Assembly (NCBI GenBank): GCA_965222275.1
Contig: OZ244941.1
Span: 1,079,184-1,143,183, forward strand
Reading direction: 5' to 3'
From: Nitrospirales bacterium
GTDB lineage: Bacteria > Nitrospirota > Nitrospiria > Nitrospirales > UBA8639
Length of the DNA stretch: 64,000 nucleotides
Made by a program: the position numbers and the translations under genes. Of this stretch, positions 10,171-40,121 are shown in pieces. Numbering within the stretch: the first letter of the stretch is position 1; each line of letters begins with the position of its first letter. Under the pieces are notes generated by a model. The model did no database searches, had not been told where the DNA came from, and saw only the letters and a program-made list of their open reading frames with translations.

Positions 10171-10172
10171 GG

Positions 10173-11501: not shown

Positions 11502-11635
11502 GGGCCCAAACCGGAAAGAAGTTGTGCGAAAGATAGTCAATGCGGAGGAAACCTCCTACACAAACAATCTTACGACCCTCTCCGAAGGCTGTCAAGAAAA
11601 TGCACCCGTTCGGTAGACCTGAGAATCCTTTCCAT

Positions 11636-15116: not shown

Positions 15117-15129
15117 CCCCTGGTCACCG

Positions 15130-15969: not shown

Positions 15970-15980
15970 CCCTGTCTTGA

Positions 15981-16199: not shown

Positions 16200-16223
16200 C
16201 GGCCTGCTCGCGGCGTGCAACGC

Positions 16224-16652
16224 TCAGCGCCGCGGGGAATCGACCGGGTATCCGGCTTCGGCCCAGGCGTTCATGCTCCCCATGACGTTATACACGTATT
16301 GGTATCCGAGGCTGGCCAGCGTTTCGGCGGCGATGTTGCTCCGGTGACCGGATTGACAATACACGACAATATGATCGTCGAGCCTTGCACCGATTTCCAC
16401 GTGGCGACGGCCGATCTCCCGAAAATCGATATTGCCATCGGTGCCGGGAATGAAGCCCGTCATATGTTCATCTCCGGTGCGGACGTCAATCAGAAAAAAC
16501 CCTTTCTGCTGGAGGCTCGGGGCTTTTTGAAGTCCCCGGTTCAACTCCTGGACGGTCAGCACGTACGTTTGTTGAGCCGAGACGGAACCGCCCAGCACCA
16601 TCAATGCGAGTGAGAGACCCATGAGGCCACTGAGGATTGTCCGGATCTTCAT
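16224..16652 (-). CDS. Periplasmic rhodanese-domain sulfurtransferase
   Basis: Signal peptide MKIRTILSGLMGLSLALMVLGGSVSAQ, FLIDVRTGDEH..GFIPG, and active-site loop VVYCQSGHRS. Confidence 0.8.
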   Translation of the reverse strand: MKIRTILSGLMGLSLALMVLGGSVSAQQTYVLTVQELNRGLQKAPSLQQKGFFLIDVRTGDEHMTGFIPGTDGNIDFREIGRRHVEIGARLDDHIVVYCQSGHRSNIAAETLASLGYQYVYNVMGSMNAWAEAGYPVDSPRR

Positions 16653-16725
16653 ATATAACCTCCCTGTCGAAATAGTGTGGAGGAGAATCAGGAACGACAT
16701 GCACTTCCTGCGTATAGAATATCCT

Positions 16726-17055
16726 ATGCCCACTTTCGGAATTTGGTCAAGAGCAGGCGTGACTCTCATCGTCGCGATGGGGTTCGTGATGGGGGGATGT
16801 GGCGGCGGCGTTCAGGTCATTCGAGAGAGCCCGGATTCTGGAGTTGTCCGGTATCTGTACAAGGGAGATGATGGACACCTGTACACCTCCAAGCGCGGCG
16901 AGGCGTTTGACAAGATTCGCGAGTTCTGTCGTGGCCCGTACCAGGTGCTTAAAGAAGGAAAAACGAAAGGCCGGCAACGGGTGGTCGAGGGCATGGGAGG
17001 CACCGAAGTCGTGACCGAAGACTGGTGGGGCATCCGGTTTCAATGCACGAAGTAG
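16726..17055 (+). CDS. Small lipoprotein of unknown function
   Basis: MPTFGIWSRAGVTLIVAMGFVMGGC (lipobox). The C-terminal string FCRGPYQVLKEGKTKGRQRVVEG has a decayed paralogous copy at 35213-35272. Confidence 0.6.
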   Translation: MPTFGIWSRAGVTLIVAMGFVMGGCGGGVQVIRESPDSGVVRYLYKGDDGHLYTSKRGEAFDKIREFCRGPYQVLKEGKTKGRQRVVEGMGGTEVVTEDWWGIRFQCTK

Positions 17056-17114
17056 CGGAAGGCGCTATGAGGCCTCTCCCTGCCCCCGAGCAGGGATGGT
17101 ATGGCTGCAAATAT

Positions 17115-20100
17115 CTACCGGGACGACAACATACCGGATCGGTTCGGTTCGAAGCCTTTCGTCCCGGCTTCGACACGCATGCCGCGCGATTTCCTGCCGG
17201 GCATATACCAGGCCCGCTTGACGTAGCAGTTCGGGCCGCGCGCTTTGATTGCCGCACAAAGGGCGGCGGCCGCTTTGCGTATGGAAAAGGCATTCGCGAC
17301 CACGACCCGCGAGAGGCCGCCTTTCTTCGGCGCGGCGATGGCCAGCATGGATTTGTCGTGACGGCGGAAGAGGCCCGACAGATCGCCGGCCAGTTTCGTC
17401 CTGGCCCTGACGGCGTTGGCATGACGCGAAAACGCCCCGAGCTGCACGAAATACCGCATGCTGCCAATCCGCTTTCGAGACTTCTCCGGTACCGAAGAAG
17501 ACGGCGCGGCAACGACCCGGTGCTTGGCTGCGAGCGGAGCGGGCGAGGCCGGTTGTTCCCGGGCCGTGGTCTCCGGAAGCAGGGCCGGCGGCGCAGTGGC
17601 AAACGTGTTGACGGCGGATCGGGACCGTACCGGTGCCGCCTGCGAAGGGGGCATACCGCTGGCCCCGCCAAACCCTAGTTGGACATGGAGGTTGACGCGA
17701 TGTTCCGGTCTGCCGAAGGGGTTCTCCATGCGCTCGCCAGCAAGCTCCACGCGCAGATCTCCTCCACGCGTTCTCGGCCGGTCGAAGACGAGGCTGACGC
17801 GCGACCGCGAGCGGCCTTCGTCCGTGAGATCCAGCCCGGTGAACGGCGTCACCGTGCCTCCCATTGATGGAACCCAAAAGCCGTAGCCCAGTTCCATGGC
17901 AAGGCGGCCGGTCGGATCGGCATTGTTGTTCGCCGCCAAGCCCGCCGTATCCTGCTGCGACCAGAGACGCTCCACCCCGCTCGATGCCGCCCCCCACGTC
18001 GGCGTCAGGGTCAGTGACAGGCCTTGGCCCGCGGTCCCCGGGTCCACCCGGACCGAGCCGCTGACCCCCCATTCCTCATAGTTGGTATCCTCGTGCGCGA
18101 GCAGTCCACGGGCGGCTCCTTCGACCGTCAGGCCCAGCCCCGGGTCTGCGTAGCGCACCCGCCCGCCCAGCTCCACGCCCAAGCCCGTCTCCGCGTCGCC
18201 CCAGTCATGCCGCAGTCCCAATTCCACCGAGGGCGCCAGCATCCGGCCCGCACTCAATTCAAACCCCCGGGAACCTTCCAGGATCAGCCGCAGCCGGTTC
18301 GCGTCCGCCTCCGCCGATTCCAATTTGCCGGCCCCGGTAGTCACCGCGTCCGAGGTCATCCGTGTCAGCATGGCTTCCGACCGCGCCGTCAGTTCGAAGC
18401 CGTCGTTCTCTCCTGCCGGCAGCAGCACGCCTCGACCCCCGAAGGCGCCCATGACCAGATCCGTATCGGTCTCGAGGGCGGCTTGGGCGTTGGCCTGCTC
18501 CAGGGTCAGATCGCCCCACCCGTACCCGAGCAGGCCCCACACGTCCAGCCGCTCGGTCATCTGATAGCGCAAATAGGGATGCACACTCGTCAGCGAGTTC
18601 TCCAACTCGCCCCGGTCCCCGGCTCCGGCCTGGGTCATGGTATACGAGCCGTCGCCCCGGCTGTGCGAGACCGAGAGTCCAGCCAGCCACCGGTCCCATT
18701 CGCCATCCACGCCCAGCGTGCCCGTCAGGACGTCGCCCTCCAAGGACAGGGTGCCATCCACCCCGTCGAACCGCGTGGCCGCCACGCGGCCCCAGGCCGT
18801 CCAGCGCGTGCCGGCCCGCCCGTCGTCGTCCGCGCCCAGGGTCAACCGGAAGGCACTCCCTACCAGGAGATCACGGCCAGTCAGGGTCCGGGAGGCGCCC
18901 GCGCGCCGCTCGGCCCACGGCCAGCCGTTCCCCGGCGCCGGCCCCCACCCGCCAGTGCCCGGCTCCGTGGAGCCCAGTGCCCCGACCCCCAGCGGCAGCC
19001 GGGTCTCTCCCAGCCCCGCCTCTGGCGTGCCCGCTGACCCGGATTCCAGCGACATCCTCCTCCCGCCGACCGTCACATACGAGCCCGGTGACCCCCGCAG
19101 CCGTTCCCCCACCGCATCCACCACGTGCGTCGCCACCGTGCGCCCGAACCGCGCCAACCACGCCTGCGGTAACGGATCGCTATTGACGATCGTGCCCACG
19201 GCCTCGGCGTCGGTCAGCGTCGCGCCCGTGGCGTTGCTGAGCCGCAGCGTGACCGTCTCCTCGCCCTCGTCATGCGCGTCATCCAGCACCGTCACCGCGA
19301 TGGTCTGCTCCGTCTCGCCGGGCGCAAAGGTCACCGTGCCGCTGGCCGCGGTGTAGTCCTCGCCCGCCGTGGCCGTGCCGTCTGCCGTGGCATAGGCCAC
19401 CGTCACCGGCGCGGGACTCGCCGGGCGCAACGTTACCGTGAACCCCAGCGTCGCGTCCGGGCCTTCGTCCACCCGCGCATCCGCGACCGCCAGCGCGTGC
19501 GGCTGCACCGTGAACGTCACGCTCCGGGCCACACTCGCCGTGCCCCCCAGGTCCCGCTCGGGGTAGGGCGAGGCCGTGACCGTGTACGTGCCCGCCGGGA
19601 ACGCTTGCCCACCCTTGTCCCCGAACAGCGCGTAGGGGACCAGATTCTCGGTCCGCGCCGAACTCTGTGTCCCCGTTAACTCCATCTTCACGCTCCAGAT
19701 CGCCGCGTTGGCCGACACCTCCGCCCGGATGTTGAGCCGGGCCGAGGCCTGGGCGGCCAGCACCATGCCCTCGGCCAGTGCAACGATGTCTGTCTGGCTG
19801 CCGCTGTCGAACAGCGTGAAGCCCGTGAGCGGGCTCGGGGGCGCCGCCGGCACCGGCGCGTGGTTGGCGATCGTGCCCACGGCTTCGGCGTCGGTCAGCG
19901 TCGCGCCCGTGGCGTTGCTGAGCCGCAGCGTGACCGTCTCCTCGCCCTCGTCATGCGCGTCATCCAGCACCGTCACCGCGATGGTCTGCTCCGTCTCGCC
20001 GGGCGCAAAGGTCACCGTGCCGCTGGCCGCGGTGTAGTCCTCGCCCGCCGTGGCCGTGCCGTCTGCCGTGGCATACGCCACCGTCACCGGATCAGCACTC

Positions 20101-23100
20101 GCCGGGCGTAGCGTCACCTGGAATTCCAGAACTGCATCGGCGGCTTCTCTCACCCGTGCGTCGGCGATCAAGAGCCGCGGCCGCGCCGGGTCCGTGCCCG
20201 CCACGACGCGGATCGTCCCGCCGTTCAGGGAGAGGCTGTTCGCCACCAGGCCCACTTGACCGGTGTCGCGGTCCGCCGTGGTCACCGTGTACGTGAACAT
20301 CAGCCGGGCCGTGCCCGTGCCGCTGGCATAGGTCGCCTGGCGTGCCGTGCCGCCCACCGTGATCCCGATCGACGGCGTCCCGTTCGTGGTGTCCACCGTG
20401 ACCGGCGTCTCGAACTGCACCGTCACCTCGATTTTCTCGCCCGGCGCGTACGCGCCGCCGCTCTCGGGCGACGACGTGATCGCCACGCTGCTGACCGTTG
20501 GGCCTGGGGCGCGGGCGCCCGATGGCTCAGCGTCCTGGCCCGCCGCCACCGTGAACGCCATGGTCCGCGTCGGCCCGGGTGTGCCGCCCAGGTTCGGCTC
20601 GGGATAGGGGGTGGCGGTGATCCGGTACCCTCCCACCGGGAAGGCCTGGCCGTCCTTGTCCCCGAACAGCGCGTAGGGAACAACGTCCGCGGTGCGTGCC
20701 GCTGTCTGCGCGCCCGTCAACTCCAGGCGCATGCTGCCGATCTGCTCGTCCGGTGCGATCTCGGCCCGGACGTTGAGCCGATCCAAGGACAGGCCTTCAA
20801 GCACTGTGCCATCGGCCAGCGCCCGGACGGCCTCCCCACTCGCGGGGTCGAACAGCGTGAAGCCCGTGACCGGACCACGCGCCGGCAGCGAGATGGTGAA
20901 CGGCTCCGACGCCGCGTTGGGGTTGCCCGCCACGTCCGTCGCGACACCGTCCGGCACCGTGATCGACATCGTACCGCTCACATCAGGATACAGCGTCACG
21001 TGGACCGTGTACTCGGTGCCGTACCCCGTGCCGTCGCTGAAGCTTGCCATGCGCGAAGCGTAGCCGTTGTCAATCACTAACTCCGACATGTCGAATCCCG
21101 ACGTCGGTTCGCTGAACGTTACCGCGATCGGGAACTCGCCCGACACCGGCGCCTCGGCCTCGCTCGTCACCTCCACCGTGGGCGCCAGAAGATCGGCGGC
21201 GATCCGCAGCGGCTGCGATGCCAGGTTGCCCGCGCCATCGCCGTCGCGTGCCGCCTCCGCCGGCACCGCGACCGTGACCGTGCCCTCGAAGCCCGCCGCC
21301 GGCTCGATCTCTGCCGTGTACGTCGCGCCGTCCACGCGCGCGAGCGTCTCGTCCGAGAGCGCGCCATTGCCGACCTCCACGTCCTCCCAGGTGAAGCCCG
21401 TCACTTCCCGGTTGAACGCGAACCTCGCCTCGAAGCGCTCGCGCACCGGACCCTCCGGGCCCGTGATCTCGACCGTCAATGCCTCGCGCGAGCGGGCCGA
21501 CGTCAGGAGCTGGACGCTCAGCGTCGCCGCCTTGTTGGCGATTTCCTTCTTCATCGCTTCGCCTGCCTTGACCGTCGCCATACCGGCGGCCACGCTCAAC
21601 ACCACCTCGGTGGCGCCCGAGTCCGGCGTGATCTCGAGGGTGTGTGCGGCGCCCTCGTAGCTGGTGCGGAGCGAGCTCCCCTTCGTGCCGCCCGTCACCG
21701 TGATGTCGTCCAGCGAGAAGCCGTCCACGGCGATCCCGCAGACCTCGCAACCCGGCTGGTGAAACGCAAACAGCACGTCGAAGGGCCCCCGGTCCACCGA
21801 ATCGTCTTCGTTTCTGTCCCAGGCGTGAACCACGATAGTCAGCGCCACCTCGTCCGCTTCGTCGTCCTCGATCGTGCCTGTCGCTTGCGCCCTGCCGAGG
21901 ACCGCCTGCTCCGCAGAGGTCAGCGTCACCTGGAAGACTTCGTCTTCTGGCCGCCAGTTCCTCTCGAACTCGTACAAGTCGTCCTGCAGAATCGGCACCT
22001 CGATCGTGCCGCTCATCTCCTTCGCCGCGATCATCAGCGTGTCGTTCATCGCCGTGTAGTCCGCCCCGGCGGTCGCGGTCCCGTCCGACGTCTCATACGC
22101 GACGCTCACCTCGAAGCTGCTCGCCGCCGACAGCGACACCGTGAACGACATGGATCCGTCGTCCTCCGAGGCCGTCGCGTCCTCGATGGAAACCTCCGGG
22201 GCCGGACTCAGGTCCGCGGTCACGGTTGCGGTCTCCGACGCCTGGTTCCCGTTGTCGGCGTTCGCGGCGTATTGCGCGACATCGGCGGCAACGCTCACCG
22301 AGACTTGGCCGGACGCGGCGGGCATGATCGTGGCGACGTACTCCCGCGCGTTGGTCGCAACGAAGGCGGTCACCGCGCCGTTCCCGACCGTGATGTCGCT
22401 GTCCACGAAGCCGGTCACGTCGTGGCTGAAGGCGACCCTCGCGTCGAAGGGACCGCCGACCGGCCCATCGGGCAGCACGACCGTCGTCGTCACCCGGACG
22501 CCGTAGACCTTGTGCCCCGCGTCGTCGGCGAAGCCCTTGTGGTCGAGCACCGCGCCGTTGCCGGCCGCGTCCCGGATCCTGCCGCCGTTCGGCCTCATGG
22601 GGTTGGCGGCGACGGACACGCCGTCGGTGTCGAGATCGCCGGCCACGACCACGTAGCGGAACTCCTCGCCGTCGAGGACATCGAAGACTTTCACCGTGCC
22701 GTGATGCGGCGCCTGCCGCGACTGGCCTCCCAGCATGAACTCGATGGAGGGGTTCCCCTCCACCACAACGTCCTCGCTGAACAGCGTCACGAACAAGATC
22801 GGGTCCCCCGCGGTGTAGATGCGGTCCTCGCCGATACCCGCCTCCGACCCCTCGGCGATGGACAGCGCGATGAGACTGGGGACGATGCCGTCCACCTTGT
22901 GTCCGGCCTGGCCGGCCTTCGCGGCGTACTCGCGTTCCGCGTCCGTCTCGGTGCCGCTCTTCTTGATGGTGGCGCCCGAGGGGAGCGTCAGCCCGTTCGC
23001 CGCGATGCCCGCGCCGTCGCTGTCCTCGTCGCCCGCCACCACCACGTACTCGAAGGTGAGCGTGGCCGTGCCGTGGCCGCCGGTATAAGTGGCCTGCCGG

Positions 23101-26100: not shown

Positions 26101-29100
26101 AGGTCGAGAGTGGGGGTCCCGGTGACGTCCACCGGCTCGCTGAACTTCACCTCCAGCGTGATGGTGTCGGCGAGCTTGTAGGTACTGCTCTGGCCCGCCG
26201 GCGGGCTGGAGGTGAACGAGACGCCCGTCACCGAGGGGATCGTCGTCATGAGGGTCAACGCCTCGGAGGCCGGCCCCGGGCCCACCACGCTTTTCGCGCG
26301 CACCTCGAAGGTGTGGGCGACGCCGTTCGCGAGGCCCGTGACGGTGTAGGTGGTGACGTTGCCGACGTCGGTCCAGTCCGGCGGCCAGGTGGTCCCCCCG
26401 TCGGTGCTCCGGCGGTACTCGTAGCTGGTGATGCTCGAGGTCCCGGCGTCCGGCGCGGTCCAGTTCAGGGTCACCTGGGCGTCGCCCACGGTCCCGGACA
26501 GGACGGGCTTGCCCGGCGGCTCGTCGTTGTCGAGGATGGTGATGGTCAGGTCCGCCGGCGGTTCGACCTGGAAGGACCCGGCCGTGCGCTCGGTCTTGAT
26601 CCGGAAGGTCTCGTCCGGCTCGTCCTCGGTGTCCTCGAGGATCGCGATCGAGAGCGCCTGCTCCCGGACGTTCTGGTTCACGCTCGCGGTGTACCGATTC
26701 CCGTTGGCAGTGGGCGTGAAATCGCCGGTGCGGATGTAGATGATCTCGCTCAGCGCCGTGTAGTCCGCCCCCGCGCTCGCGTTGTCGGATTCCGTCCTGA
26801 TGCTGAAGGTGATGTCCCTGTCCGGGCGCACCGTGCCTGCGGTCGCCGCGGTGTAGGTGATGCCGATGTCGCCCTCGTCCTCGTCCACCGAGGCCCCGGG
26901 GTCGAGCTCGATGGTCACCATGATCCCCGCCACGTCGTTGTCGAGCAGCTCCAGGCTCGCCGACGCCGGCGTTCCGGCGCGGTAGTCCGCACGCGGGGTA
27001 ACGGTCACCTCGAGCCGGCCGTCGGGCTCGTCAATTTCGTCGTCATCGGTGGAGATGACGAGCGCCTTCTCGCTCTCGTCCGCCGCGAACGTCACCTGCC
27101 TCGCCAGGTCCGCGCCGCCCGCGAGGAAGCTCGTCGCCGTGATCTCCAGCCCCACCACCAGGTCCTTGGCCGCGTGGTTCGCGCGGGTGACGGTGAAGGT
27201 CGCTTCCCCGCCCTCGAAGAGCCGCGCCTGCGCGGTGGCCACGGTCACCACCGGCAGGTCGTCGTCGGTGATCGTCCCCGTGGCCCGCGCCCTGGCGAGG
27301 TTCGCGCCCGGACTGTCGCCGAGGGTGAGATCCACGTGGAACGATTCGCTGTCCTCCTGGATCTGGTCGCTCAGCAGCGCGACGCGGATCTCCTTGCTGG
27401 TTTCGCCCACGGCGAAGGTCAGCGCGCCCGAGCCCGCGGTGAAGTCGACGCCCACCGTCGCCGTGTCCGCGACGGTCGCCCAGCTCGCCTCCACCTGCCG
27501 CCCGCTCGCCGGGCTGAGCGTCACCGTGAACACCATCTCCCCGTCGGCCTCCCCGGCCGTCACGTCCGCGATCGAGAGCGCCGGCTCGGCGTCGTCGTCC
27601 ACGATGAGGCCGTCGGCGAACGGCGCCGCGGGCAGGCGGGCGTTCGAGGGCGAGTGGATGGTGAGCCGGAAGCGCTCGGTCGCCTCGTTGACGGTGTCTT
27701 CCACCGTCGCCACCGCAACGTCCTTGGAGGTCTCGCCGGGGTCGAAGGTCAGCGTTCCGGTGACGGCGGTGTAGTCCTCGCCGTCCACGGCGGCTTGAGC
27801 GGCCGTATCCGCCGGGCCGTCGCTCGTCCGGTACTGCACCGTGACGGTCTTCCCGCTCGCGGGGGTCAGGGTCACCTCGAAGGTGGCCGGATCGCCTTCC
27901 GGCGGGGACGCGCCCTGGACCCCGAGCAGGGGCGGGTCGTCGTTGTCGTCGATGAAGCCGGTGGCCTCGGGGTTCGGGAGGGTCGCGTTGACGGGGTTCG
28001 CGAGGCGGGCCAGGAACTGTTCCCGGTCCTCGTCGGAGTCGTCGTCCACTACGGGTACGGCGAACATCCGGCTGGTGGTCCCCGGCGCGAAGGTGAGGGT
28101 CCCGGCGATGTCTTCGAAGTCGATCTCCAGCGCGGCGCTCCAGCTCACGACGCTGTAGTCCACGGTTACCTCCCGGTCGCTCGCGGCGCTCAGGTTCACG
28201 GTGAACTCGACTTCCCCGGCGGTCTCGGAGCCGGTGGCGTTCACGAAGCTCAGGGCAGGCTCGGGGTCGTCGTCCTGGATGGTGATCGTCGCCTCCCGGG
28301 CGCCCACCAGGTAGGCGTTGCTGTCGTTGAGCGTGGCGGTGAGCGTGCCGTCGTCCTCGTCGCGGGTGTCGTCGTCGGTGGGGATCGTGATGAGCACGTG
28401 GTCGTCGTTCGCCTCGATGGAGAACTCCCTGGCGGGGCCGAGGTCCGAAGCCGGGTTCTTGACGTGCTTGCCGGTCGCGGCGATGGCCACGAAGAAGCTG
28501 TCGTGGACGCCCAGGTAGCCGGAGCGGGTCAGCTTGAAGACCGCGTCCGTTCCCTCGGGCACCGTTGCGTCAACGGCCTCGACGGAGACGGTCGGCCGGT
28601 CGTCGTCCTTGATGGTCCCGGTGGCGGTCGGGGGGGTCGGCAGCGTCGCGTGCGTGGCGCTGCTCAGCGTCATCGTGAAGGTCTCGGTGTCGGCTTCGTC
28701 CGCGGTGTCGGCCACCAGGGTGACCACGATCTGCTTGCTGGTCTCGCCGGGGTCGAAGGTGAGGGCGTCGCTCGCGGCGGTGTAGTCGGCGGGGGCCTCC
28801 GCCGTGCCGTCCGCGGTCGCGTAGCTGACGCTCACCGGGTAGTCGCTGGCGGCGCTCAACCCCACGGTGAAGGTGAGGGCGCCGGCGGACTCCTCGGCCT
28901 CCACGTCGCCGATGCTGAGCACCGGCGGGTCGTCGTTGTCGCGGATGGTGTAGGCGGCGGTCGCCCTGGCGCCGTCGATCCCGTACGAGTCATCCGTCGG
29001 GGCCACCAGGGTGGCGGTGACCGCGCCGTCCGGCTCGTCGGTGCTGTCCTCCGTGGTGACCTGCGAGCAGCCCACCGCGGAGGTCGTGGCGACGACTCGC

Positions 29101-32100
29101 TCGTTCGCCAGGATCGTCACCGTGCAGGTCTGGCCGTCGGTGGGCAGGTAGTTGCCGTTGTCCTCCAGCGTGAACCGGACGGTGAGCGGATCCGCTACGA
29201 CGGCGGTCTCGCGGCGCACCACGAACCAGAGCTGCGCGCCCTCGTTCACGACACCGCCCTGGAAGTTCGTGGAGCGCTCGATGCTCACCTTCGCCTGGTC
29301 GTCGTTCGTGATCGTGCCGGTGACGATGTTACTGCCGGAAGCGAGCTGGGCGTTGCCGACGCCAAAGACGCGCAGGGCCACCGTCTCGTCCCGCTCGTGC
29401 ACGTCGTCCACGACCACCGGCACCTCGATGACGAGGTCGGCCGTGGACCCCGCGGTGATCGTGATCGCGGCGGCGGTGGGCGTGTAGTCGTCCGTCGGCG
29501 CCGCCGTGCCCCGCGAGGCGGCGTCCGTCTCGCCGGACTCGATGGTCTCGTACTGGAAGGTGACGTCCTTGCCGCTCGGCGCGCTGAGCGACGCCGTGAA
29601 GCGGAGCGGCCCGGCGTCTTCTGCGACGTCCGCCACGGTCACGGTGAGGGTCGGCTCGGGGTCGTTGTCCACGATGGTGCCGACGGCCTCGGACTTGCCC
29701 AGATCGAGCACGGCGTTCAACGACGGCGACTCCAGCACGATCAGGAGGGTCTCGTCCACCTCGTCGAGGGCGTCGTCCACCAGGGCGAGCGAGATCGCCG
29801 CCTGTGTCTGGCCGGCGCTGATCGTCGCCGTGGTCGTTCCCGTCGGCGCGCTGGTGAAGTCCGCCGCCGACGCCGTGTCGTATTCGATGCGCCAGTCGAA
29901 GGTCGCGTTCTGGGAGTGCGTCCGGCTCATCTCCACCGTGAATTCGAGCGAGCCGGCGTTCTCGGAGGCGCTGGCTGGCTCGATGGAGAGCAACGGGGAG
30001 ACGTCGTCCTCCTGGATGAACACGAAGAACCGGGGCGGGACCGGGAGCAGCGCCGGGCCGGTGGGGGTGTGCAGCTCGACGTAGAACACCTTGCCCGTTT
30101 CGGCCAGGTCGTTGTCGATGATCGGGATGGAAACGGTCTGCTGCGTCTGCGGGGGCGCGAAGGTCAGGGTGCCGCTCGAGGCCGTGTAGTGCGTCCCCGC
30201 CACGGCCTCGTCCGCCCCGGTGGCGTCGGTGTCGCCGGCCGGTTTCCCCGTCGTCCGCCACTGCACCGTGATCTCCTCGCTGGCGGGGTTCAAGAGCGTG
30301 ACCGGGATCACCGCGTCGCCGACGGACTCCAAGACCTGGGCCGGGTTGATGACGAAGTGGGGCTGGGGGTCGTTGTCGGTGACGGTGACCGACGCCTCCC
30401 GGGCGTCCGCCTTGGGGGTGTAGGTCCTCAGCGTGCCGACCTCGTTCACGGCGCCGGCGGGCTGGTCGGCGATGCTCACCTTGAGCGCGCCGTCCGCCTC
30501 GTGGACGTCGTCGTCCACGGTGGGCAGGCTCAGCGTGTAGGTGGTCGAAGCGACGGTGCCCGCAAACTCGATGTATCCGGGGATGGTGATCGTCCGCTGC
30601 CCCGCGGTTGTGTCGAGGTAGTCGCCCGTCTGCTCCACATCGAGGACAATCTTCAGGTCCTGCGAGGCCGCCAGTCCGTAGCCGTCGTGCCTGGTGATCT
30701 CGAAGGCCACGGTCGTTCCTTCTCCGACGGAGGAAACGTCGCCCGCGACTGCGATCGTCACGGTCGGACGACTGTTGTTGATTTCCACCTGGTAGGATTT
30801 CGCCTCCCCGAGCGTGTACCGGGGCTGGAACGGGAAACGCGTCTCGTCGAAGGGCAGCAGTTCGAACGTCCGCCGGACGCCGAGTGGGCCTACCCTCGTC
30901 GGGGTGTAATACCGATTCTCATAGACGGACTCGATCACTCCCACCGGCAGGCCGCCAGTGACGGTGTGGATCCGGCTGTCAGACACCGACCTCACATCCT
31001 GGTCGGGCGGGAGGTACCGTTCCAGGACGGTAGAGATGTAGTCGTAAGAAAGCAGTGTCTCGGAGTAGGCGGAGCGGGCGACCCTCTGAGTGAAGAAATC
31101 TCCTTCGAACATCTCGGTCTTGTCCGTAGTCGCCGTCAGGATGGGAATGTCGTCGTCCCTGACCAACATGCTGGCTGACCTCGCCGTGTCGCCGGCCTGG
31201 TAGTTGGCGCCGGCGGCGATTTCGGCGGTGATCTCGCCGTCGCCCTCGTTGAACTCGTCGTTGATGCTCGGGAGCGAGAACTCGGCGCCGGAGCTCCCGG
31301 CGGCGAAGGTGACCGACCGCGATTCCGTGGTGGTCTGCAGGAAGAGCGAAGTCGGGATCGTGGCGTGCTCGGTGAAGATCTTCGTGTGGTAGGTCAGGCT
31401 CAGGTTGACGGAGAGCGCGACCGCAGTGCCGCCGGTGCGGGTCAGGTCGAAGACGGCGGGGCTGCCCTCGTCCACCTGCTCGGCGCGCGCGGCGATGGTG
31501 ACGGTCTCGTTGTCGTTGTCGAGGATGGCGACGGTGGTGGCGGCGGGCGTGCCCTCCGAGACCTTCTCCGGGAGGGTCGCGCCGAAAGTGAGCCGGACCG
31601 TCTCGCCGTCGTCGTCCTCGGTGTCGTCGGTGGCGGTGAAGGTGACCGTCTTCGAGGTCTCGTTGGCGGCGAAGGTCACGTTCGTGGGCACCGTCGAGTC
31701 GCCGCTGGCGGCGCCGTCCTGCCCCTCGGCCTCCAGCGGAATCGTCACTTCGCGGCCGGGCGCGATGTCGAGCTGCACGGTCACCTCTGCCGTACCGCCC
31801 TCGGAGACCTCGTAGGTTGCCGCGTCGAAGGAGACGGTCACCTCGAAGAGGTCGTCGTCCTCGATGGTCCCGGTCGCCGTGGCCCGCGCGATCTGCGCGT
31901 TCGCCGGCGAGGTGAGGGTGACGGTGAAGGTCTCGTCCGGCTCGATGTCCGTGTCGTCCCGGATCGTCACCGTGAAGGTCGCGCTCGTCTGCCCGGCGGG
32001 GATCGTCAGCGTGCTGCTGACGGCGGTGTAGTCCTCGCCGGCGGTGGCGGTCCCGTTCGAGGTCGCGTAGTGCACCTCCGCGTCGAAGTCCGTCGAGCCG

Positions 32101-33992
32101 GTGCGGGAGACCGTGAAGGTCATCGAGCCCGCGTCCTCGGCCGTCGTCACGTCCGCGATGGAGAGCATCGGCGTGGCGGTCGAGCCGAGTATCTGGTTCT
32201 CGGCTCGGCCCTGGGCGGCGGGGTGGTCGAGGACGGCGTCGTTGCCGGCCGCGTCCTTGAGCGTGGCGCCGCTCGGGAGCGAGATGCCGTTCGCGGGGAC
32301 GGCGATGCCGTCGGGGTCGTAGTCGCCGGCGACGATGGTGTAACTGAAGACCACCACCCTGGTGCCCGCGATGTAGATGAAAAAGGCCGCAGTCCGGGTC
32401 CGGGTTCCCACCGTCAGGCCGAGCGACGGGTTGCCGCCGGCGAACACGAGCGGCTCCGAGAACTGCATGCTGACCTGGAAGGTGCCGTTGTCCGTGAAGG
32501 TCTCGACGTTGCCGCGGTTCGACGGGATCTGCACCAGGGTGATCGTGGGCGCGACGCCGTCCACCTTGTGGGCGGAGTCGGCGGCCACTGCGGTATGCGT
32601 CAGCACTGCGTCCGTACCGCCGGTGCTCCGGATGCTGGCGCCGGTGGGAACCGTCAGGCCGTTGGCGGCGATGGCGGCGCCGTCCGTGTCCTCATCGTCG
32701 TCGGCCACCGTGTACTGGAAGGTCAGGGTGGTGGCGCCGGCGCCCCCGCGGTAGGTGGCCTGCCGGGTGTTGGCGCCGATCACGAGGTCCAGGGTGGGCG
32801 CCCCGGTGACGTTCACCGCCTCGCTGAACACCACCTCCGCCGAGATGGTGTCGCCCTGCTTGTAGAACCCGTTCTGCCCCGCGGGTGGCATCGAACTGAA
32901 CGACACCCCCGAGACCGTCGGGCCACCGGGGCCGTCGTCGCCCTGTTGCCGGGCGCTGACCAGAGGGTCATCCCCTCGTGGAGCGATGCGCCGCGGCTCG
33001 TCTCGTGCGGCACGTCGCAAGGCGCGATGTCGGACCTCGCGGGCCACATCCATCTCGAACGGCGCCCGATCGTCCACGCTGGCCAGCGCGTAAGCGAGGC
33101 GGGCCACGCTGCCGGCGTTCGTCGTCGTCCACTGCCTGGCCGCGGCTTCGAGGCTTGCCGCTATCTCCACGTCGGCCCGGTACATTCGCTCCTTCGCCGT
33201 TTCCTCGCTCGCGCCACGCTGGCGGTGCGGCAGCCGTCCGGCGGCGGCCGGGGTGCTCCCCTGCCGAGCGGTGCGGATTACCTCGGACCCGTTCACCCTG
33301 ATTCTTATCGGGTTGCCCGTACCCCACCAGCCGTCCGTGGTTCCACGAGTACGAAACAGCGGAGAATCGGCTATACTCCATCCCGCCGCCGCGCCGGCAT
33401 CTTCCTTATGACTTGTGGTCACGCTAAGCCGAGGGGTCGTTTCCCCTGCCGTGCGGGTATATTCCATGACCACGAAGTACGTGGTGTTTGCCGCAAGCAT
33501 GGTGTTTGTCGAAGCGGTGAACGCCTGGCGTCCCCTCGACAGACTACCCGGATTCGTGAAGGTGTGCAGAAGTTTGCCTGGTCGATACGTGTTGCCTGGG
33601 GACCACAGGGCTACGGTCAGGTTGGCGGGATTCCCGGGTGCCCGGGCCAGATTCACTTCGATGCTGCTCAGGGTGTAGCCAGATGGATTCGAGCCGGCGG
33701 TGAATCCTTGCGCAATGACACGATCACCTACTATTGCCGTCGTGACTTCCTTTTGACCATCGTTGCTCCCGAGTACGGATGCTTGCGCCTGCGCGGGTGT
33801 ACTGACACCAAGCAGGGCGGCGCCTGCGAGTACGAAGGCGGCGAGGGGGCGCCGGACCGGACCGAGGGTCGGGGAGCGCCCGGGGCTCGAAGGAGGGGGT
33901 GCCCGCCGGTTGCGGATGCGCCGGGATGCTCGGGCGCCACGGTCCGAAGCGCCGGCGCGCTCGGCCCCATCGCTTTCCTGTCGCGGAATCAT
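17115..33992 (-). CDS. Giant (~5,625 aa) modular adhesin-like autotransporter: Calx-beta x~20, FN3 x4, cadherin-like x1, unassigned Ig-like modules, autotransporter beta-domain, C-terminal SPOR
   Basis: One uninterrupted ORF. ATG 33992 precedes an Arg-rich leader and the hydrophobic core AAFVLAGAALLGVSTPAQAQA. Repeated ...A.GTI.DDD module ends, PGKP..VTL.WTAP FN3 starts, NNPPTFTSAADPSVAEN (cadherin-like), AWLARFGRTVA...HVQLGF (translocator) and YFVQLGAFSRHANA (SPOR) are all visible in the translation. Confidence 0.9.
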   Translation of the reverse strand: MIPRQESDGAERAGASDRGARASRRIRNRRAPPPSSPGRSPTLGPVRRPLAAFVLAGAALLGVSTPAQAQASVLGSNDGQKEVTTAIVGDRVIAQGFTAGSNPSGYTLSSIEVNLARAPGNPANLTVALWSPGNTYRPGKLLHTFTNPGSLSRGRQAFTASTNTMLAANTTYFVVMEYTRTAGETTPRLSVTTSHKEDAGAAAGWSIADSPLFRTRGTTDGWWGTGNPIRIRVNGSEVIRTARQGSTPAAAGRLPHRQRGASEETAKERMYRADVEIAASLEAAARQWTTTNAGSVARLAYALASVDDRAPFEMDVAREVRHRALRRAARDEPRRIAPRGDDPLVSARQQGDDGPGGPTVSGVSFSSMPPAGQNGFYKQGDTISAEVVFSEAVNVTGAPTLDLVIGANTRQATYRGGAGATTLTFQYTVADDDEDTDGAAIAANGLTVPTGASIRSTGGTDAVLTHTAVAADSAHKVDGVAPTITLVQIPSNRGNVETFTDNGTFQVSMQFSEPLVFAGGNPSLGLTVGTRTRTAAFFIYIAGTRVVVFSYTIVAGDYDPDGIAVPANGISLPSGATLKDAAGNDAVLDHPAAQGRAENQILGSTATPMLSIADVTTAEDAGSMTFTVSRTGSTDFDAEVHYATSNGTATAGEDYTAVSSTLTIPAGQTSATFTVTIRDDTDIEPDETFTVTLTSPANAQIARATATGTIEDDDLFEVTVSFDAATYEVSEGGTAEVTVQLDIAPGREVTIPLEAEGQDGAASGDSTVPTNVTFAANETSKTVTFTATDDTEDDDGETVRLTFGATLPEKVSEGTPAATTVAILDNDNETVTIAARAEQVDEGSPAVFDLTRTGGTAVALSVNLSLTYHTKIFTEHATIPTSLFLQTTTESRSVTFAAGSSGAEFSLPSINDEFNEGDGEITAEIAAGANYQAGDTARSASMLVRDDDIPILTATTDKTEMFEGDFFTQRVARSAYSETLLSYDYISTVLERYLPPDQDVRSVSDSRIHTVTGGLPVGVIESVYENRYYTPTRVGPLGVRRTFELLPFDETRFPFQPRYTLGEAKSYQVEINNSRPTVTIAVAGDVSSVGEGTTVAFEITRHDGYGLAASQDLKIVLDVEQTGDYLDTTAGQRTITIPGYIEFAGTVASTTYTLSLPTVDDDVHEADGALKVSIADQPAGAVNEVGTLRTYTPKADAREASVTVTDNDPQPHFVINPAQVLESVGDAVIPVTLLNPASEEITVQWRTTGKPAGDTDATGADEAVAGTHYTASSGTLTFAPPQTQQTVSIPIIDNDLAETGKVFYVELHTPTGPALLPVPPRFFVFIQEDDVSPLLSIEPASASENAGSLEFTVEMSRTHSQNATFDWRIEYDTASAADFTSAPTGTTTATISAGQTQAAISLALVDDALDEVDETLLIVLESPSLNAVLDLGKSEAVGTIVDNDPEPTLTVTVADVAEDAGPLRFTASLSAPSGKDVTFQYETIESGETDAASRGTAAPTDDYTPTAAAITITAGSTADLVIEVPVVVDDVHERDETVALRVFGVGNAQLASGSNIVTGTITNDDQAKVSIERSTNFQGGVVNEGAQLWFVVRRETAVVADPLTVRFTLEDNGNYLPTDGQTCTVTILANERVVATTSAVGCSQVTTEDSTDEPDGAVTATLVAPTDDSYGIDGARATAAYTIRDNDDPPVLSIGDVEAEESAGALTFTVGLSAASDYPVSVSYATADGTAEAPADYTAASDALTFDPGETSKQIVVTLVADTADEADTETFTMTLSSATHATLPTPPTATGTIKDDDRPTVSVEAVDATVPEGTDAVFKLTRSGYLGVHDSFFVAIAATGKHVKNPASDLGPAREFSIEANDDHVLITIPTDDDTRDEDDGTLTATLNDSNAYLVGAREATITIQDDDPEPALSFVNATGSETAGEVEFTVNLSAASDREVTVDYSVVSWSAALEIDFEDIAGTLTFAPGTTSRMFAVPVVDDDSDEDREQFLARLANPVNATLPNPEATGFIDDNDDPPLLGVQGASPPEGDPATFEVTLTPASGKTVTVQYRTSDGPADTAAQAAVDGEDYTAVTGTLTFDPGETSKDVAVATVEDTVNEATERFRLTIHSPSNARLPAAPFADGLIVDDDAEPALSIADVTAGEADGEMVFTVTLSPASGRQVEASWATVADTATVGVDFTAGSGALTFAVGETSKEIRVALLSDQIQEDSESFHVDLTLGDSPGANLARARATGTITDDDLPVVTVATAQARLFEGGEATFTVTRANHAAKDLVVGLEITATSFLAGGADLARQVTFAADESEKALVISTDDDEIDEPDGRLEVTVTPRADYRAGTPASASLELLDNDVAGIMVTIELDPGASVDEDEGDIGITYTAATAGTVRPDRDITFSIRTESDNASAGADYTALSEIIYIRTGDFTPTANGNRYTASVNQNVREQALSIAILEDTEDEPDETFRIKTERTAGSFQVEPPADLTITILDNDEPPGKPVLSGTVGDAQVTLNWTAPDAGTSSITSYEYRRSTDGGTTWPPDWTDVGNVTTYTVTGLANGVAHTFEVRAKSVVGPGPASEALTLMTTIPSVTGVSFTSSPPAGQSSTYKLADTITLEVKFSEPVDVTGTPTLDLTVGSDTAAAGYTGGTGTDTLTFAYTVQADDVDRDGAGVSANALKLAGGTIRKQDSTTQDANLALDALASQSGQQVDGAAPALRTATVSGDQLVLTWDEALNSGATPAASAFALGYTGTGTTPTIGGVAVSGTVVTLTLSRATTREDTLTISYTAPSGASALQDLAGNPAADFTDQAVTNQSVPTVTVTFDAADYTVTEGADVEVTVTLSADPERGVTIPIVATPGDGASAADYTVADTVTFASGEMSKVLTFGATGDTEDDDDETVALSFGTLPFAVTEGARPAATVAITDDDDPVVTVSFGAADYRVAEGADVEVTVTLSADPERSVEIPLTATPGTGAEATEFTAPESVSFASGEISKTVPFTTTEDTAAEEDETVELGFGATLPAGVSAGAPATATVTITDDDSAPGLPALTAAPADGKVTLTWLAPADPGSSAITSYEYRVSADGKTTWSPDWMDAGNVFEKEISSLTNGTEYTFQVRAVNAVGKGETAETTATPVANNPPTFTSAADPSVAENTTAVLTVAATDDDTGDDVTGYALQGGADQSKFTFDPSTRELVFASAPNFEDLRDADRDGAYIVIVRATSGTGDRQRTTDQTITVTVTDVAEAPGKPAAPTFSGTTSTTLAVTWTAPENTGPDITDYDVRYRTGSDTFAAWTHDGTATTATITGLTASTAYDVQVRARNAEGDGAWSDSGTGTTAAPPIIATAGIAAGASVTEGTALAFTLTVDPLPAATTSYTATLSVIETGGDMLEAATEGTKRFGFQYNPTTSAYEAPATALSGTDVLSGSANVLSLPTAGDAADELDSTVTVSITAVTGFLNSDDSMVSVNVGTPASAFQTVTDDDELPGKPVISSAAPGNAQVTLTWTAPTQTGTSPVTGYDYRYKADGDAAFGGWTDAGAGATATVDGLTNGAEYTFEVRAKSAAGDGPASDPIAATPTEASATVPAVSEVSFTSTPAAGQNDTYKLSDVIEVEVAFSEAVDVTGTPTVDLTIGAATRQATYTGGHGTATLTFEYVVVAGDEDSDGAGIAANGLTLPSGATIKKSGTETDAEREYAAKAGQAGHKVDGIVPSLIALSIAEGSEAGIGEDRIYTAGDPILFVTLFSEDVVVEGNPSIEFMLGGQSRQAPHHGTVKVFDVLDGEEFRYVVVAGDLDTDGVSVAANPMRPNGGRIRDAAGNGAVLDHKGFADDAGHKVYGVRVTTTVVLPDGPVGGPFDARVAFSHDVTGFVDSDITVGNGAVTAFVATNAREYVATIMPAASGQVSVSVAADVAQYAANADNGNQASETATVTADLSPAPEVSIEDATASEDDGSMSFTVSLSAASSFEVSVAYETSDGTATAGADYTAMNDTLMIAAKEMSGTIEVPILQDDLYEFERNWRPEDEVFQVTLTSAEQAVLGRAQATGTIEDDEADEVALTIVVHAWDRNEDDSVDRGPFDVLFAFHQPGCEVCGIAVDGFSLDDITVTGGTKGSSLRTSYEGAAHTLEITPDSGATEVVLSVAAGMATVKAGEAMKKEIANKAATLSVQLLTSARSREALTVEITGPEGPVRERFEARFAFNREVTGFTWEDVEVGNGALSDETLARVDGATYTAEIEPAAGFEGTVTVAVPAEAARDGDGAGNLASQPLRIAADLLAPTVEVTSEAEAPVSGEFPIAVTFSEPTSGFDMSELVIDNGYASRMASFSDGTGYGTEYTVHVTLYPDVSGTMSITVPDGVATDVAGNPNAASEPFTISLPARGPVTGFTLFDPASGEAVRALADGTVLEGLSLDRLNVRAEIAPDEQIGSMRLELTGAQTAARTADVVPYALFGDKDGQAFPVGGYRITATPYPEPNLGGTPGPTRTMAFTVAAGQDAEPSGARAPGPTVSSVAITSSPESGGAYAPGEKIEVTVQFETPVTVDTTNGTPSIGITVGGTARQATYASGTGTARLMFTYTVTTADRDTGQVGLVANSLSLNGGTIRVVAGTDPARPRLLIADARVREAADAVLEFQVTLRPASADPVTVAYATADGTATAGEDYTAASGTVTFAPGETEQTIAVTVLDDAHDEGEETVTLRLSNATGATLTDAEAVGTIANHAPVPAAPPSPLTGFTLFDSGSQTDIVALAEGMVLAAQASARLNIRAEVSANAAIWSVKMELTGTQSSARTENLVPYALFGDKGGQAFPAGTYTVTASPYPERDLGGTASVARSVTFTVQPHALAVADARVDEGPDATLGFTVTLRPASPAPVTVAYATADGTATAGEDYTAASGTVTFAPGETEQTIAVTVLDDAHDEGEETVTLRLSNATGATLTDAEAVGTIVNSDPLPQAWLARFGRTVATHVVDAVGERLRGSPGSYVTVGGRRMSLESGSAGTPEAGLGETRLPLGVGALGSTEPGTGGWGPAPGNGWPWAERRAGASRTLTGRDLLVGSAFRLTLGADDDGRAGTRWTAWGRVAATRFDGVDGTLSLEGDVLTGTLGVDGEWDRWLAGLSVSHSRGDGSYTMTQAGAGDRGELENSLTSVHPYLRYQMTERLDVWGLLGYGWGDLTLEQANAQAALETDTDLVMGAFGGRGVLLPAGENDGFELTARSEAMLTRMTSDAVTTGAGKLESAEADANRLRLILEGSRGFELSAGRMLAPSVELGLRHDWGDAETGLGVELGGRVRYADPGLGLTVEGAARGLLAHEDTNYEEWGVSGSVRVDPGTAGQGLSLTLTPTWGAASSGVERLWSQQDTAGLAANNNADPTGRLAMELGYGFWVPSMGGTVTPFTGLDLTDEGRSRSRVSLVFDRPRTRGGDLRVELAGERMENPFGRPEHRVNLHVQLGFGGASGMPPSQAAPVRSRSAVNTFATAPPALLPETTAREQPASPAPLAAKHRVVAAPSSSVPEKSRKRIGSMRYFVQLGAFSRHANAVRARTKLAGDLSGLFRRHDKSMLAIAAPKKGGLSRVVVANAFSIRKAAAALCAAIKARGPNCYVKRAWYMPGRKSRGMRVEAGTKGFEPNRSGMLSSR
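17205..17459 (-). other. SPOR (peptidoglycan-binding) domain at the extreme C-terminus of the giant protein
   Basis: MRYFVQLGAFSRHANAVRARTKLAGDL...GLSRVVVANAFSIRKAAAALCAAIKARGPNCYVKRAW. It is separated from the barrel by a ~70-aa Pro/Ala/Ser-rich linker. Confidence 0.7.
17670..19175 (-). other. Autotransporter (type Va) linker plus beta-barrel translocator domain of the giant protein
   Basis: PLPQAWLARFGRTVATHVVDAV..., alternating-hydrophobic beta strands (TRWTAWGRVAATRFDG, GTLGVDGEWDRWLAGLSVSHSRGDG, VHPYLRYQMTERLDVWGLLGYGWG) and the terminal RVNLHVQLGF. Confidence 0.8.
19188..19409. repeat. Near-identical 222-bp intragenic repeat, copy A (Calx-beta module)
   Basis: It differs from 19869-20090 at 2 positions by eye, and both copies encode ...VTVAYATADGTATAGEDYTAASGTVTFAPGETEQTIAVTVLDDAHDEGEETVTLRLSNATGATLTDAEAVGTI. 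Confidence 0.9.
19869..20090. repeat. Near-identical 222-bp intragenic repeat, copy B
   Basis: See copy A. The offset is 681 bp (227 codons, in frame), and flanking sequence of the 681-bp unit is much more diverged. Confidence 0.9.
33780..33992 (-). other. Extended 71-aa signal/leader region of the giant protein
   Basis: MIPRQESDGAERAGASDRGARASRRIRNRRAPPPSSPGRSPTLGPVRRPLAAFVLAGAALLGVSTPAQAQA|SV. Confidence 0.55.
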
Positions 33993-34388
33993 CTTGTGAT
34001 GCTCCCCAGATTCTTGCCTCCGAGTCCGCCGTTCCCATGCCCAGATTCGCACTACACGGGAGCATGGCAGTTTTCCCTGTGCCATGTATACGTAACTATT
34101 GGATATTATTGTAATATGCACACGTGTCACCATCAAGCGCTATGTGATGATGGAGGACGCTTCGAAAGAATCAGAAACAGCGTCAGACCCAGGTCGGGCG
34201 TCGGACCTTACGCTCCGGTTGGTCATTCATCCGTGACGGCCTTTCCCTGGCCGCCTGTGCAACGTCCCGTAGCCGTTGCTGCAACACAAAAGCCGGAGTC
34301 CCTTCCTGATTTCGACCCGGACCATCCTCAGGCCAAAGGGATCATTCTCTCATTTCACCGCTGGCCTGATGAAGGGGAACAAACAGTC

Positions 34389-34556
34389 ATGCTTGAAAAG
34401 ACAACGGAAGCGGGGCTGATGAAGAAAGAAGAGATCCCCCGTTTCAAAACCTGGGTTTTTGAATGGGGCGAATGGCGAAAGGCGGCAACGGCTCAGAAGG
34501 TCTGCTTCAGCCTGCAGGACCTTTCCTCCCTGGAGGCCCGTGAGCCGGATTATTGA
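34389..34556 (+). CDS. Possible small ORF (55 aa)
   Basis: MLEKTTEAGLMKKEEIPRFKTWVFEWGEWRKAATAQKVCF... is the only non-GC-shadow part of the long plus-strand ORF 31365-34556. The RBS is weak. Confidence 0.2.
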   Translation: MLEKTTEAGLMKKEEIPRFKTWVFEWGEWRKAATAQKVCFSLQDLSSLEAREPDY

Positions 34557-34770
34557 CTTGGCCCCGCCACCGGCTCTCTAAAGTAAAGAAAAATAACGAG
34601 CGAAAAGCTCCACCCGTCTCACCGAGCGCGCCTGCGACAACCGCAAGTCCGCCGCTCAATCCGAATCGGACGGCGAAGCCCCGAATAGGAACCCGACAAG
34701 ACATGCAAGCGCATAGATGCTAAGATGCGCTGTTCATACGGCATCCATACTGCAAAAAGGAGGTGCGAAG

Positions 34771-40101: not shown

Positions 40102-40121
40102 AGCCGAGACTGAGCGGAAAA

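Follow-up and report, generated by a model that had tools for sequence, protein, structure and literature searches.

The DNA analyzed here, a stretch of 64,000 nucleotides (nt) from contig OZ244941.1 of a Nitrospirales bacterium (referred to as the window), carries on its minus strand an uninterrupted open reading frame (ORF) of 16.9 kb at positions 17115-33992, which encodes a predicted surface protein of 5,625 amino acids (aa). The original prediction, made from the sequence alone, had proposed that this single ORF specifies a string of bead-like adhesin modules exported by its own autotransporter barrel. Both the ORF and the general picture of a giant bead-string surface protein with an autotransporter-type barrel in its C-terminal region are supported by our analysis, while the class of the barrel, the rarity of its pairing with such a passenger and the origin of the gene have to be judged differently. 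The parts of the gene are listed below in the order of translation, together with the evidence that defines them (self-profile, profile built on the protein itself; CBM, carbohydrate-binding module; pLDDT, predicted local distance difference test of AlphaFold).

34103..34136, minus strand: two overlapping sigma-70-like promoter matches (TTGATG-17-TACAAT and GTGACA-16-TAATAT; consensus matches only)
33780..33992, minus strand: start codon (ATG) and leader of 71 aa, composed of an Arg/Pro-rich extension (46 aa) and a Sec-type signal peptide that ends in AQAQA
33288..33767, minus strand: choice-of-anchor R domain, aa 76-235, at the predicted membrane-distal tip of the passenger (NF041539, 100.3 bits)
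32223..32915, minus strand: two VSF modules of ~90-110 aa, aa 380-464 and 502-589 (self-profile)
26523..32180, minus strand: main Calx-beta array, 15 modules, aa 605-2490 (self-profile, E 1e-23 to 1e-38 per module)
23292..26516, minus strand: mixed segment, aa 2493-3567 (self-profile and Pfam)
20907..23240, minus strand: two VSF modules (aa 3585-3817), then four Big_12 modules with one Calx-beta module between them (aa 3833-4362; self-profile and PF19078)
19176..20876, minus strand: membrane-proximal segment, aa 4373-4939, with CBM-like, VSF, Calx-beta, CBM-like and Calx-beta modules (self-profile)
19098..19172, minus strand: conserved amphipathic helix AWLARFGRTVATHVVDAVGERLR at the passenger-barrel junction (AlphaFold model 2, pLDDT 86-91)
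18885..19046, minus strand: Gly/Pro-rich, length-variable linker from helix to barrel, predicted to be disordered (pLDDT below 50 in both models)
17673..18863, minus strand: outer-membrane beta-barrel, ~395 aa, about 18 predicted strands (TIGR01414, Foldseek, DSSP on AlphaFold models)
17466..17672, minus strand: Pro/Ala/Ser-rich disordered linker (~70 aa), predicted to be periplasmic (pLDDT 20-33; variable among SPOR-tailed relatives)
17208..17459, minus strand: SPOR peptidoglycan-binding domain (PF05036, 31.9 bits versus a threshold of 21)
17115..17117, minus strand: stop codon (ORF reading)

The maximal ORF extends from 17115 to 34136 (minus strand) with a TTG start and would comprise 5,673 aa. 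Judged from the sequence, however, the ATG at 33992 is the most plausible start, because there is no in-frame alternative, a GGGGAG motif is located 9 nt upstream and the sigma-70-like sites lie at 34136-34103. A start that would remove the long leader was ruled out, since after 33992 the reading frame contains no further ATG, GTG or TTG ahead of the hydrophobic signal-peptide core; the Arg-rich leader of 71 aa described in the original prediction is therefore genuine. Following the 46-aa extension, sequence inspection revealed an N-terminal signal peptide of the Sec type, RRPLAAFVLAGAALLGVSTPAQAQA (cleavage before Ser), and paralogues likewise carry long Arg/Pro-rich leaders ahead of their signal peptides. 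In paralogues from related Nitrospirales metagenome-assembled genomes (MAGs) the 5' end of the ORF contains perfect (GA)n tracts of 12-40 units, which encode (ER)n before the signal peptide (loci L016 7241-7306, L011 7754-7783, L012 7062-7105, L015 7270-7315, L017 2873-2920, L021 846-925, L036 5459-5494, L054 8356-8379, L061 3807-3864 and L067 6610-6659). These tracts are candidate switches for phase variation by slipped-strand mispairing; the window gene itself has no (GA)n tract. The leader of a further paralogue (L030, OZ241905.1) has at its 5' end a 12-nt tandem repeat encoding (PTDR)n in place of (GA)n, a second type of simple-sequence tract at this leader position in the family.

The passenger of ~4,850 aa consists of about 45 beta-sandwich beads. 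A census with profiles built on the protein itself, with Pfam run alongside, counted 21 Calx-beta, four FN3, four Big_12, one cadherin-like and one SWM/Big_5 module, in addition to about six of the ~110-aa modules termed VSF and two termed CBM-like. The module counts of the original prediction were thus largely reproduced, including the four FN3 and about six VSF copies, with qualifications on three points: the roughly 20 Calx-beta modules are present, but the strict GTIxDDD ending ascribed to them is found in only 6-8; the single cadherin-like module (aa 3146-3236) reached 25.7 bits with PF00028 (E 1.5e-5) and so stayed below the gathering score of 28.8; and both CBM-like copies exist, but their label lacks support. 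In Pfam, Calx-beta (PF03160) scored above its gathering threshold in both halves of the protein (401 and 229 bits, the former in nine stretches of the half with the main array), and fn3 (154 bits, four stretches), Big_12 (PF19078, 93 bits, four stretches), SWM_repeat (56.7 bits) and Big_5 (29 bits) were recovered as well. The choice-of-anchor R domain at the N-terminal end of the passenger had been overlooked by the original prediction, although it exceeds its cut-off of 30 bits more than threefold, and paralogues begin with the same LVSNxGQ motif as this region. Within the main Calx-beta array a single gap of ~120 aa (aa 949-1071) has no module assignment. The mixed segment that follows contains, in this order, FN3, VSF, SWM/Big_5, two Calx-beta, FN3, cadherin-like, FN3, a degenerate Calx-beta and FN3 modules. 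The two CBM-like copies (aa 4373-4483 and 4720-4830) are near-identical in type. Neither these nor the VSF modules nor the gap region (aa 945-1075) matched any entry in Pfam, NCBIfam or the PDB sequences, and the carbohydrate-binding label of the CBM-like modules is therefore unsupported.

The junction between passenger and barrel is formed by the helix AWLARFGRTVATHVVDAVGERLR, in which 102 relatives show almost no variation at the positions W, R, F, G, R, H, D and R, and the linker that leads from this helix to the barrel is variable and rich in insertions and deletions in the family alignment. The barrel was predicted in two AlphaFold runs based on alignments of 30 and 102 sequences (pLDDT 62 and 68, respectively). 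Both models comprise about 18 antiparallel strands over ~395 aa (strand count by DSSP), preceded by a confident 25-aa helix on the invariant AWLARFGRTVATHV motif and ~80 disordered Gly/Pro-rich residues. The closest match of the first model in a Foldseek search was BrkA, while the second model matched NalP, BrkA, EspP and AIDA-I. At the sequence level, the NCBIfam autotransporter model TIGR01414 scored 14.9-15.2 bits on the window protein, just below the cut-off of 16, and exceeded this curated cut-off in eight of ten relatives (18.9-26.6 bits). With a limit of E <=0.1 it matched 19 of 30 relatives, the best with an E value of 2.1e-7, and in every relative it aligned to model positions ~152-376 of 432, which correspond to the first two thirds of the barrel. 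By these profile and fold matches, the first two thirds of the barrel can be regarded as homologous to the autotransporter beta-domain. The stretch from AWLARFGRTVA to HVQLGF that the original prediction had taken as the translocator is present, but ~187 aa including the SPOR domain come after it: the barrel ends in NLHVQLGF, an internal beta-signal followed by 187 more residues, whereas most relatives end in LQxxWGF, the canonical beta-signal with a terminal Phe.

The SPOR domain in the C-terminal tail was also recognized by NF050813 (34 bits), which represents the C-terminal half of the Caulobacter-type FtsN, and AlphaFold predicted for it the beta-alpha-beta-beta-alpha-beta (E-H-E-E-H-E) fold with a pLDDT of 80-90; a search of the tail against PDB sequences was not significant (CwlC SPOR, E 0.69). 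Among 277 family members 18 carry a SPOR domain, always after the barrel, and because the arrangement of barrel, linker and SPOR recurs in 17 further proteins from independent assemblies, the tail is a genuine variant and not a fusion artefact. The SPOR-tailed barrels are scattered in a crude neighbor-joining tree, and a single gain (monophyly) of the tail is consequently not claimed. Since the predicted strand count is even, the tail would be located in the periplasm. Peptidoglycan-binding or periplasmic domains attached to other type V barrels are on record: inverse autotransporters carry a periplasmic LysM domain on the barrel, and in trimeric autotransporters of Negativicutes and Streptobacillus an SLH or OmpA domain follows the barrel and affects stability and localization (bioRxiv 10.64898/2026.01.22.700529). 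Our literature search turned up no autotransporter with a SPOR tail. The closest SPOR-tailed relative found in the homologue search (L079 5399-11702, on ENA contig ctg578307, which carries P0001) is preceded by three gene calls on the same strand with SWM_repeat and FN3 domains, which suggests a single larger gene that frameshifts or sequencing errors have split; likewise, the SPOR tail of another relative (L005) is seemingly out of frame. An FGE-sulfatase gene comes next after the SPOR-tailed relative (L079/L005), and another is found in the window at 59398-60603.

The original prediction had considered the pairing of such a passenger with an autotransporter barrel to be unusual. Across the family this does not apply: when the barrel was used as query, exhaustive searching with phmmer retrieved 8,109 clusters of 50% identity at E <=1e-3 (3,879 at E <=1e-30), in which the same barrel is joined to passengers with Calx-beta, FN3, cadherin, He_PIG, LRR and SRCR domains and reaches protein lengths of up to 5,491 aa. 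The combination of barrel and beads is thus common but uncharacterized, and the window gene is one member of a very large, unstudied family. Relatives of 3-5.5 thousand amino acids (kaa) are present both in chromosome-level MAGs built on long reads and in metagenomes, and GTDB representatives with the family belong to the Nitrospirales, Binatia, Thermodesulfobacteriota, Latescibacterota, Gammaproteobacteria and Acidobacteria. Sponge-type Nitrospirales MAGs of 2.2-3.2 Mb contain 6 to 14 or more family loci each, and these paralogues are scattered around the chromosome. Our search of the literature on SPOR, Calx-beta, sponge or Nitrospirales autotransporters returned no description of this barrel family. 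The host is a diderm, since the window contains genes for LpxC and a TonB-dependent receptor. Its GC content of ~56-57% and the size of the closest relatives (2.2-2.75 Mb) match the values of 'Ca. Nitrosymbion' (PMC11812461), and a carrier of the family, Nitrospira bin75, comes from the sponge Aplysina aerophoba (PMC5649159).

The gene differs strongly in composition from its surroundings. Its GC content is 0.67-0.72 compared to 0.52-0.60 in the flanks, and its GC content at third codon positions (GC3) is 0.90 compared to 0.54-0.72 (about 0.65) in neighboring genes. Together with long antisense ORFs, this GC richness had been taken in the original prediction as an indication of foreign origin, and both features are real. 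The antisense ORF at 21642-31178 (plus strand, 3,178 aa), however, is a compositional by-product and not a gene: each of its codons starts opposite a GC-rich third position of a sense codon (GC3 ~0.93), so that stop codons are rare and such an ORF is to be expected. The high GC3 itself is a signature of the family and no proof that the window copy is a recent import, because all 47 full-length relatives from six phyla are equally GC3-rich in every host (mean GC3 of 0.80 at the N-terminus, 0.88 in the middle and 0.87 in the barrel, with a flank GC of 0.60 in any host).

Nevertheless, recent horizontal transfer of the gene from a donor of high GC content, in line with the foreign origin envisaged in the original prediction, has to be weighed as an explanation of this composition. 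The locus is clearly variable: the flanking proteins are 95-98% identical to and collinear with those of the Nitrospirales MAG OZ253473.1, but the interval between the genes for a rhodanese and a hypothetical protein spans 17.9 kb in the window (16770-34716) and 11.8 kb in OZ253473.1 (L001 7616-19428), where it is occupied by two family genes on the opposite strand (1,059 aa, 8420-11599; 903 aa, 15006-17717) and a 477-aa ORF. The locus is thus a replacement hotspot for the barrel family. In addition, the gene adjoins an island with restriction-modification and Mrr genes and a tRNA-Ser gene, and barrel identity across phyla (48-56%) equals that among paralogues within one genome; cadherin-type attachment proteins have also been reported as laterally transferred among sponge symbionts (PMC10947273, citing Robbins 2021). 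Against an import of the window copy stand the equally high GC3 in all relatives and hosts, including the 6-14 or more scattered paralogues per genome, and the profile of GC3 along the gene, which is host-like in the first ~300 codons (0.62-0.70), reaches 0.9-1.0 over the beads and then declines gradually across the barrel (0.80-0.85) and the tail (0.72-0.80), with no step at the gene borders. Moreover, a blastn search of the gene against 74 related loci, aimed at recent transfer, found no more than 78% nucleotide identity, and no att-like or terminal repeats, direct or inverted, of at least 11 nt were present at the island borders. Because cross-phylum barrel identity equals that of paralogues within a genome, the data fit frequent exchange within a shared gene pool, but a mechanism within the family itself, for example gene conversion with a GC bias between repeats and between paralogues, would account for them just as well. 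That this particular copy was imported recently appears doubtful to us.

In our preferred reading, to which we assign a probability of about 65%, the ORF is a genuine giant surface-adhesin gene whose Sec-dependent product combines a bead-string passenger, a divergent type-V-like barrel and a SPOR tail. Several results weigh against this reading, most of them concerning the barrel. The Foldseek TM-scores were only 0.34-0.56 and the confidence of the AlphaFold models is moderate (pLDDT 62-68). A PF03797 match in the barrel, the check set beforehand for its description as a 'classical type Va translocator', was not obtained in the last 761 aa (E <=10), in the whole protein or in 30 relatives (E <=0.1); the family profile had no match among PDB sequences at E <=1; and hhalign of the 102-sequence barrel alignment against the beta-domains of Ag43, YfaL, YpjA and YcgV from E. 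coli K-12 gave an E value of 0.57, although this comparison is weak given a family Neff (effective number of sequences) of only 2.1 and a template of four sequences. The last ~60 positions of TIGR01414 were never aligned, and ~170 barrel residues remain where the model has ~60, so that the barrel is ~110 aa longer than the model. The number of ~18 strands is, to our knowledge, unlike that of any solved type V barrel, and the junction helix lies ~80 disordered residues away from the barrel, which sets it apart from the pore helix in type Va proteins. Finally, the assignment of the host to sponge-type (lineage IVb-like) Nitrospirales, and with it the sponge origin of the window, is a deduction. 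The silence of PF03797, the ~18 predicted strands and the SPOR tail after the barrel also mean that the term 'classical' has to be abandoned; from the models, the barrel appears to be a divergent, enlarged relative of the type V beta-domain that is autotransporter-like rather than classical.

These deviations raise the question of whether the barrel belongs to type Va at all. It might instead represent a distinct class, a channel of ~16-18 strands distinguished by a conserved helix ahead of the barrel and a conserved loop of 27 aa, in which strands were possibly added to an autotransporter beta-domain and a wider lumen or another mechanism would permit the export of multi-kaa strings of Ig-like beads. 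Such a class would be in line with the recurrence of 18 strands over ~395 aa in two AlphaFold runs with different alignments, with the restriction of TIGR01414 to positions 152-376 of 432 in every relative and with the negative outcome of the PF03797, hhalign and PDB sequence-profile comparisons. It would also account for two nearly invariant motifs, AWLARFGRTVATHV and GQGLSLTLxPTWGAASSGV, for which we know of no counterpart in type Va or solved autotransporter barrels. The latter is part of the family motif GQGLSLTLxPTWGAASSGVxxLWSxQ (window 17900-18000, aa ~5336-5360), which forms in both AlphaFold models a low-confidence barrel loop of 27 aa with short helices between strands 13 and 14. On the other hand, the middle third of the barrel has a pLDDT below 55 in the deeper model, the additional strands may extend a 12-strand barrel as an extracellular beta-hairpin, and type Va translocators remain the best structural neighbors. 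We consider a separate class to be rather unlikely, even slightly more so than a recent import, and retain the view of an enlarged autotransporter-like barrel.

Far less probable is an origin of the ORF in faulty assembly, by the collapse of a repeat array or by a chimeric join, for instance an in-frame fusion of a high-GC adhesin fragment to a SPOR/FtsN-like gene of the host. The gene is rich in repeats, GC3 is lower in the SPOR tail and in the N-terminal 300 aa than in the core, and the tail resembles the C-terminal half of the Caulobacter-type FtsN. However, the GC3 shift is gradual, the combination of barrel, linker and SPOR is shared by 17 independent proteins from other assemblies and the flanks are collinear with a chromosome-level MAG. 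Moreover, since the internal DNA repeats have diverged (mostly 60-80% identity, with only one pair of ~300 nt in the membrane-proximal segment, 19161-19460 and 19842-20141, reaching 90%), a collapse or misassembly is unlikely from the sequence. Export by a type I secretion system (T1SS), which would make the protein a giant RTX adhesin comparable to LapA, SiiE or MpIBP and its barrel an incidental feature, would explain why the Calx-beta/Ig-like bead string with its acidic Ca2+ junctions resembles RTX adhesin extenders (PMC12153261), but this reading is effectively refuted by the N-terminal Sec signal peptide, a C-terminus made of barrel and SPOR instead of a T1SS secretion signal, the absence of RTX nonapeptide repeats in Pfam and, in agreement with the original prediction, the absence of genes for T1SS components (ABC transporter, membrane fusion protein, TolC) among the 20 flanking ORFs scanned.

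For the giant adhesin with an autotransporter-like barrel, a mechanism may be derived from the established biology of type V secretion and Ca2+-dependent adhesins. The Sec signal peptide with its Arg-rich extension would carry the 5,625-aa precursor across the inner membrane, and the beta-barrel assembly machinery (BAM) would insert the barrel of the C-terminal region into the outer membrane. The ~4,850-aa passenger could then be threaded out with its C-terminus first, with the sequential folding of beads outside the cell driving export and Ca2+ at the acidic Calx-beta junctions stabilizing folding and stiffening the stalk, in keeping with the concept of Ca2+-rigidified Calx-beta/Ig extenders (PMC12153261). 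The resulting stalk would be roughly 0.2 micrometre long (about 45 beads of ~4 nm) and tipped by the choice-of-anchor R domain, which together with the mixed FN3, cadherin-like and unassigned modules might be presented as binding surfaces. As the last barrel strand is predicted to end in the periplasm, the flexible linker and the SPOR domain may tie the barrel to peptidoglycan, and this tether would pass the load on the long fibre to the cell wall.

When compared with known secretion and adhesin systems, the protein shares with type Va autotransporters (NalP, BrkA, EspP, AIDA-I, Ag43) the order of signal peptide, passenger, helix and barrel in the C-terminal region. TIGR01414 recognizes the family, type Va barrels are its top Foldseek neighbors and most relatives end in Phe; a long leader likewise accompanies a long passenger, by analogy with ESPR (bioRxiv 10.64898/2026.01.22.700529). 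It differs in that PF03797 is not matched, that the barrel comprises ~395 aa with a predicted number of about 18 strands instead of ~270 aa and 12, that ~80 disordered residues separate helix and barrel, that the passenger is composed of ~45 beta-sandwich beads and not of a beta-helix, and that the SPOR domain follows the barrel, which does not form the extreme C-terminus. The leader, moreover, is Arg/Pro-rich and gave no match to an ESPR family in Pfam. Similar to inverse autotransporters of type Ve (intimin, invasin, YeeJ), a barrel that carries a peptidoglycan-binding module would export an Ig-like string; however, the type Ve barrel and its LysM domain are N-terminal, while here the order is passenger, barrel and periplasmic domain, the barrel family is another one and SPOR takes the place of LysM. 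The trimeric type Vc proteins of Negativicutes and Streptobacillus (with SLH or OmpA) share a peptidoglycan-binding domain directly after the barrel at the C-terminus, but they are trimeric anchors with four strands per chain and coiled-coil stalks, in contrast to the single large barrel, bead-string passenger, SPOR domain and Nitrospirota host found here. With the T1SS substrates LapA, SiiE and MpIBP and with BapP from Pseudoalteromonas tunicata, the passenger has in common a tandem arrangement of Calx-beta, cadherin-like and Big beads and acidic Ca2+ sites between the domains; a marine lifestyle on host surfaces is a further parallel (PMC12153261). These adhesins are exported by a T1SS or, in the case of BapP, are barrel-less, and they have neither a C-terminal beta-barrel nor SPOR.

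The gene belongs to a family that is huge, multi-copy, GC3-rich, rapidly reshuffled and shared across symbiont phyla. Passengers in the textbook picture of type V secretion are beta-helical and shorter, and this picture is challenged by an autotransporter-type barrel that is routinely paired with beta-sandwich bead passengers of 1-5.5 kaa. The apparently enlarged barrel and the putative C-terminal SPOR tether of one sub-branch provide concrete hypotheses for type V secretion. With thousands of members, many copies per small genome and a distribution over six phyla typical of sponge microbiomes, the family points to a fast-evolving surface repertoire, as suggested by the variable loci, the deviant GC3, the multi-copy state, the cross-phylum presence and the (GA)n tracts in some paralogues. 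FN3, cadherin and 'eukaryotic-like' domains are known to be enriched in sponge symbionts, and such a repertoire could be the basis of this enrichment.

If these elements are combined, one may tentatively propose an undescribed branch of type V secretion, with an enlarged barrel and a SPOR-bearing sub-branch, that serves a cross-phylum exchanged, phase-variable adhesin repertoire of sponge symbionts; we regard this broader proposal as possible but clearly less secure than the reading of the window gene itself. In this case, a barrel of ~18 strands with an invariant junction helix and loop would export multi-kaa Ig-like strings, and the SPOR tether in one sub-branch would position or fix the fibre where peptidoglycan is denuded (at the septum or the poles). 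The repertoire would be horizontally exchanged, GC-biased and partly phase-variable via the (GA)n tracts in paralogues, and sponge symbionts would use it to hold on to, or to be recognized by, their host.

Two further features of the window were noted outside the gene. A 492-aa ORF at 11930-13408 (minus strand), which has no counterpart in the otherwise collinear locus of OZ253473.1 (L001), gave a sub-threshold match to TbpB_B_D, a lobe of transferrin-binding protein B (23.5 bits versus a threshold of 26), and may be another variable surface protein. The island that adjoins the gene (35273-41552) is small and of the defence and mobility type; it encodes a helix-turn-helix protein, a 981-aa type IIG restriction-modification enzyme similar to Eco57I/MmeI (36724-39669) and an Mrr-like endonuclease (40122-41000), and it contains a tRNA-Ser(CGA) gene at 41465-41552.

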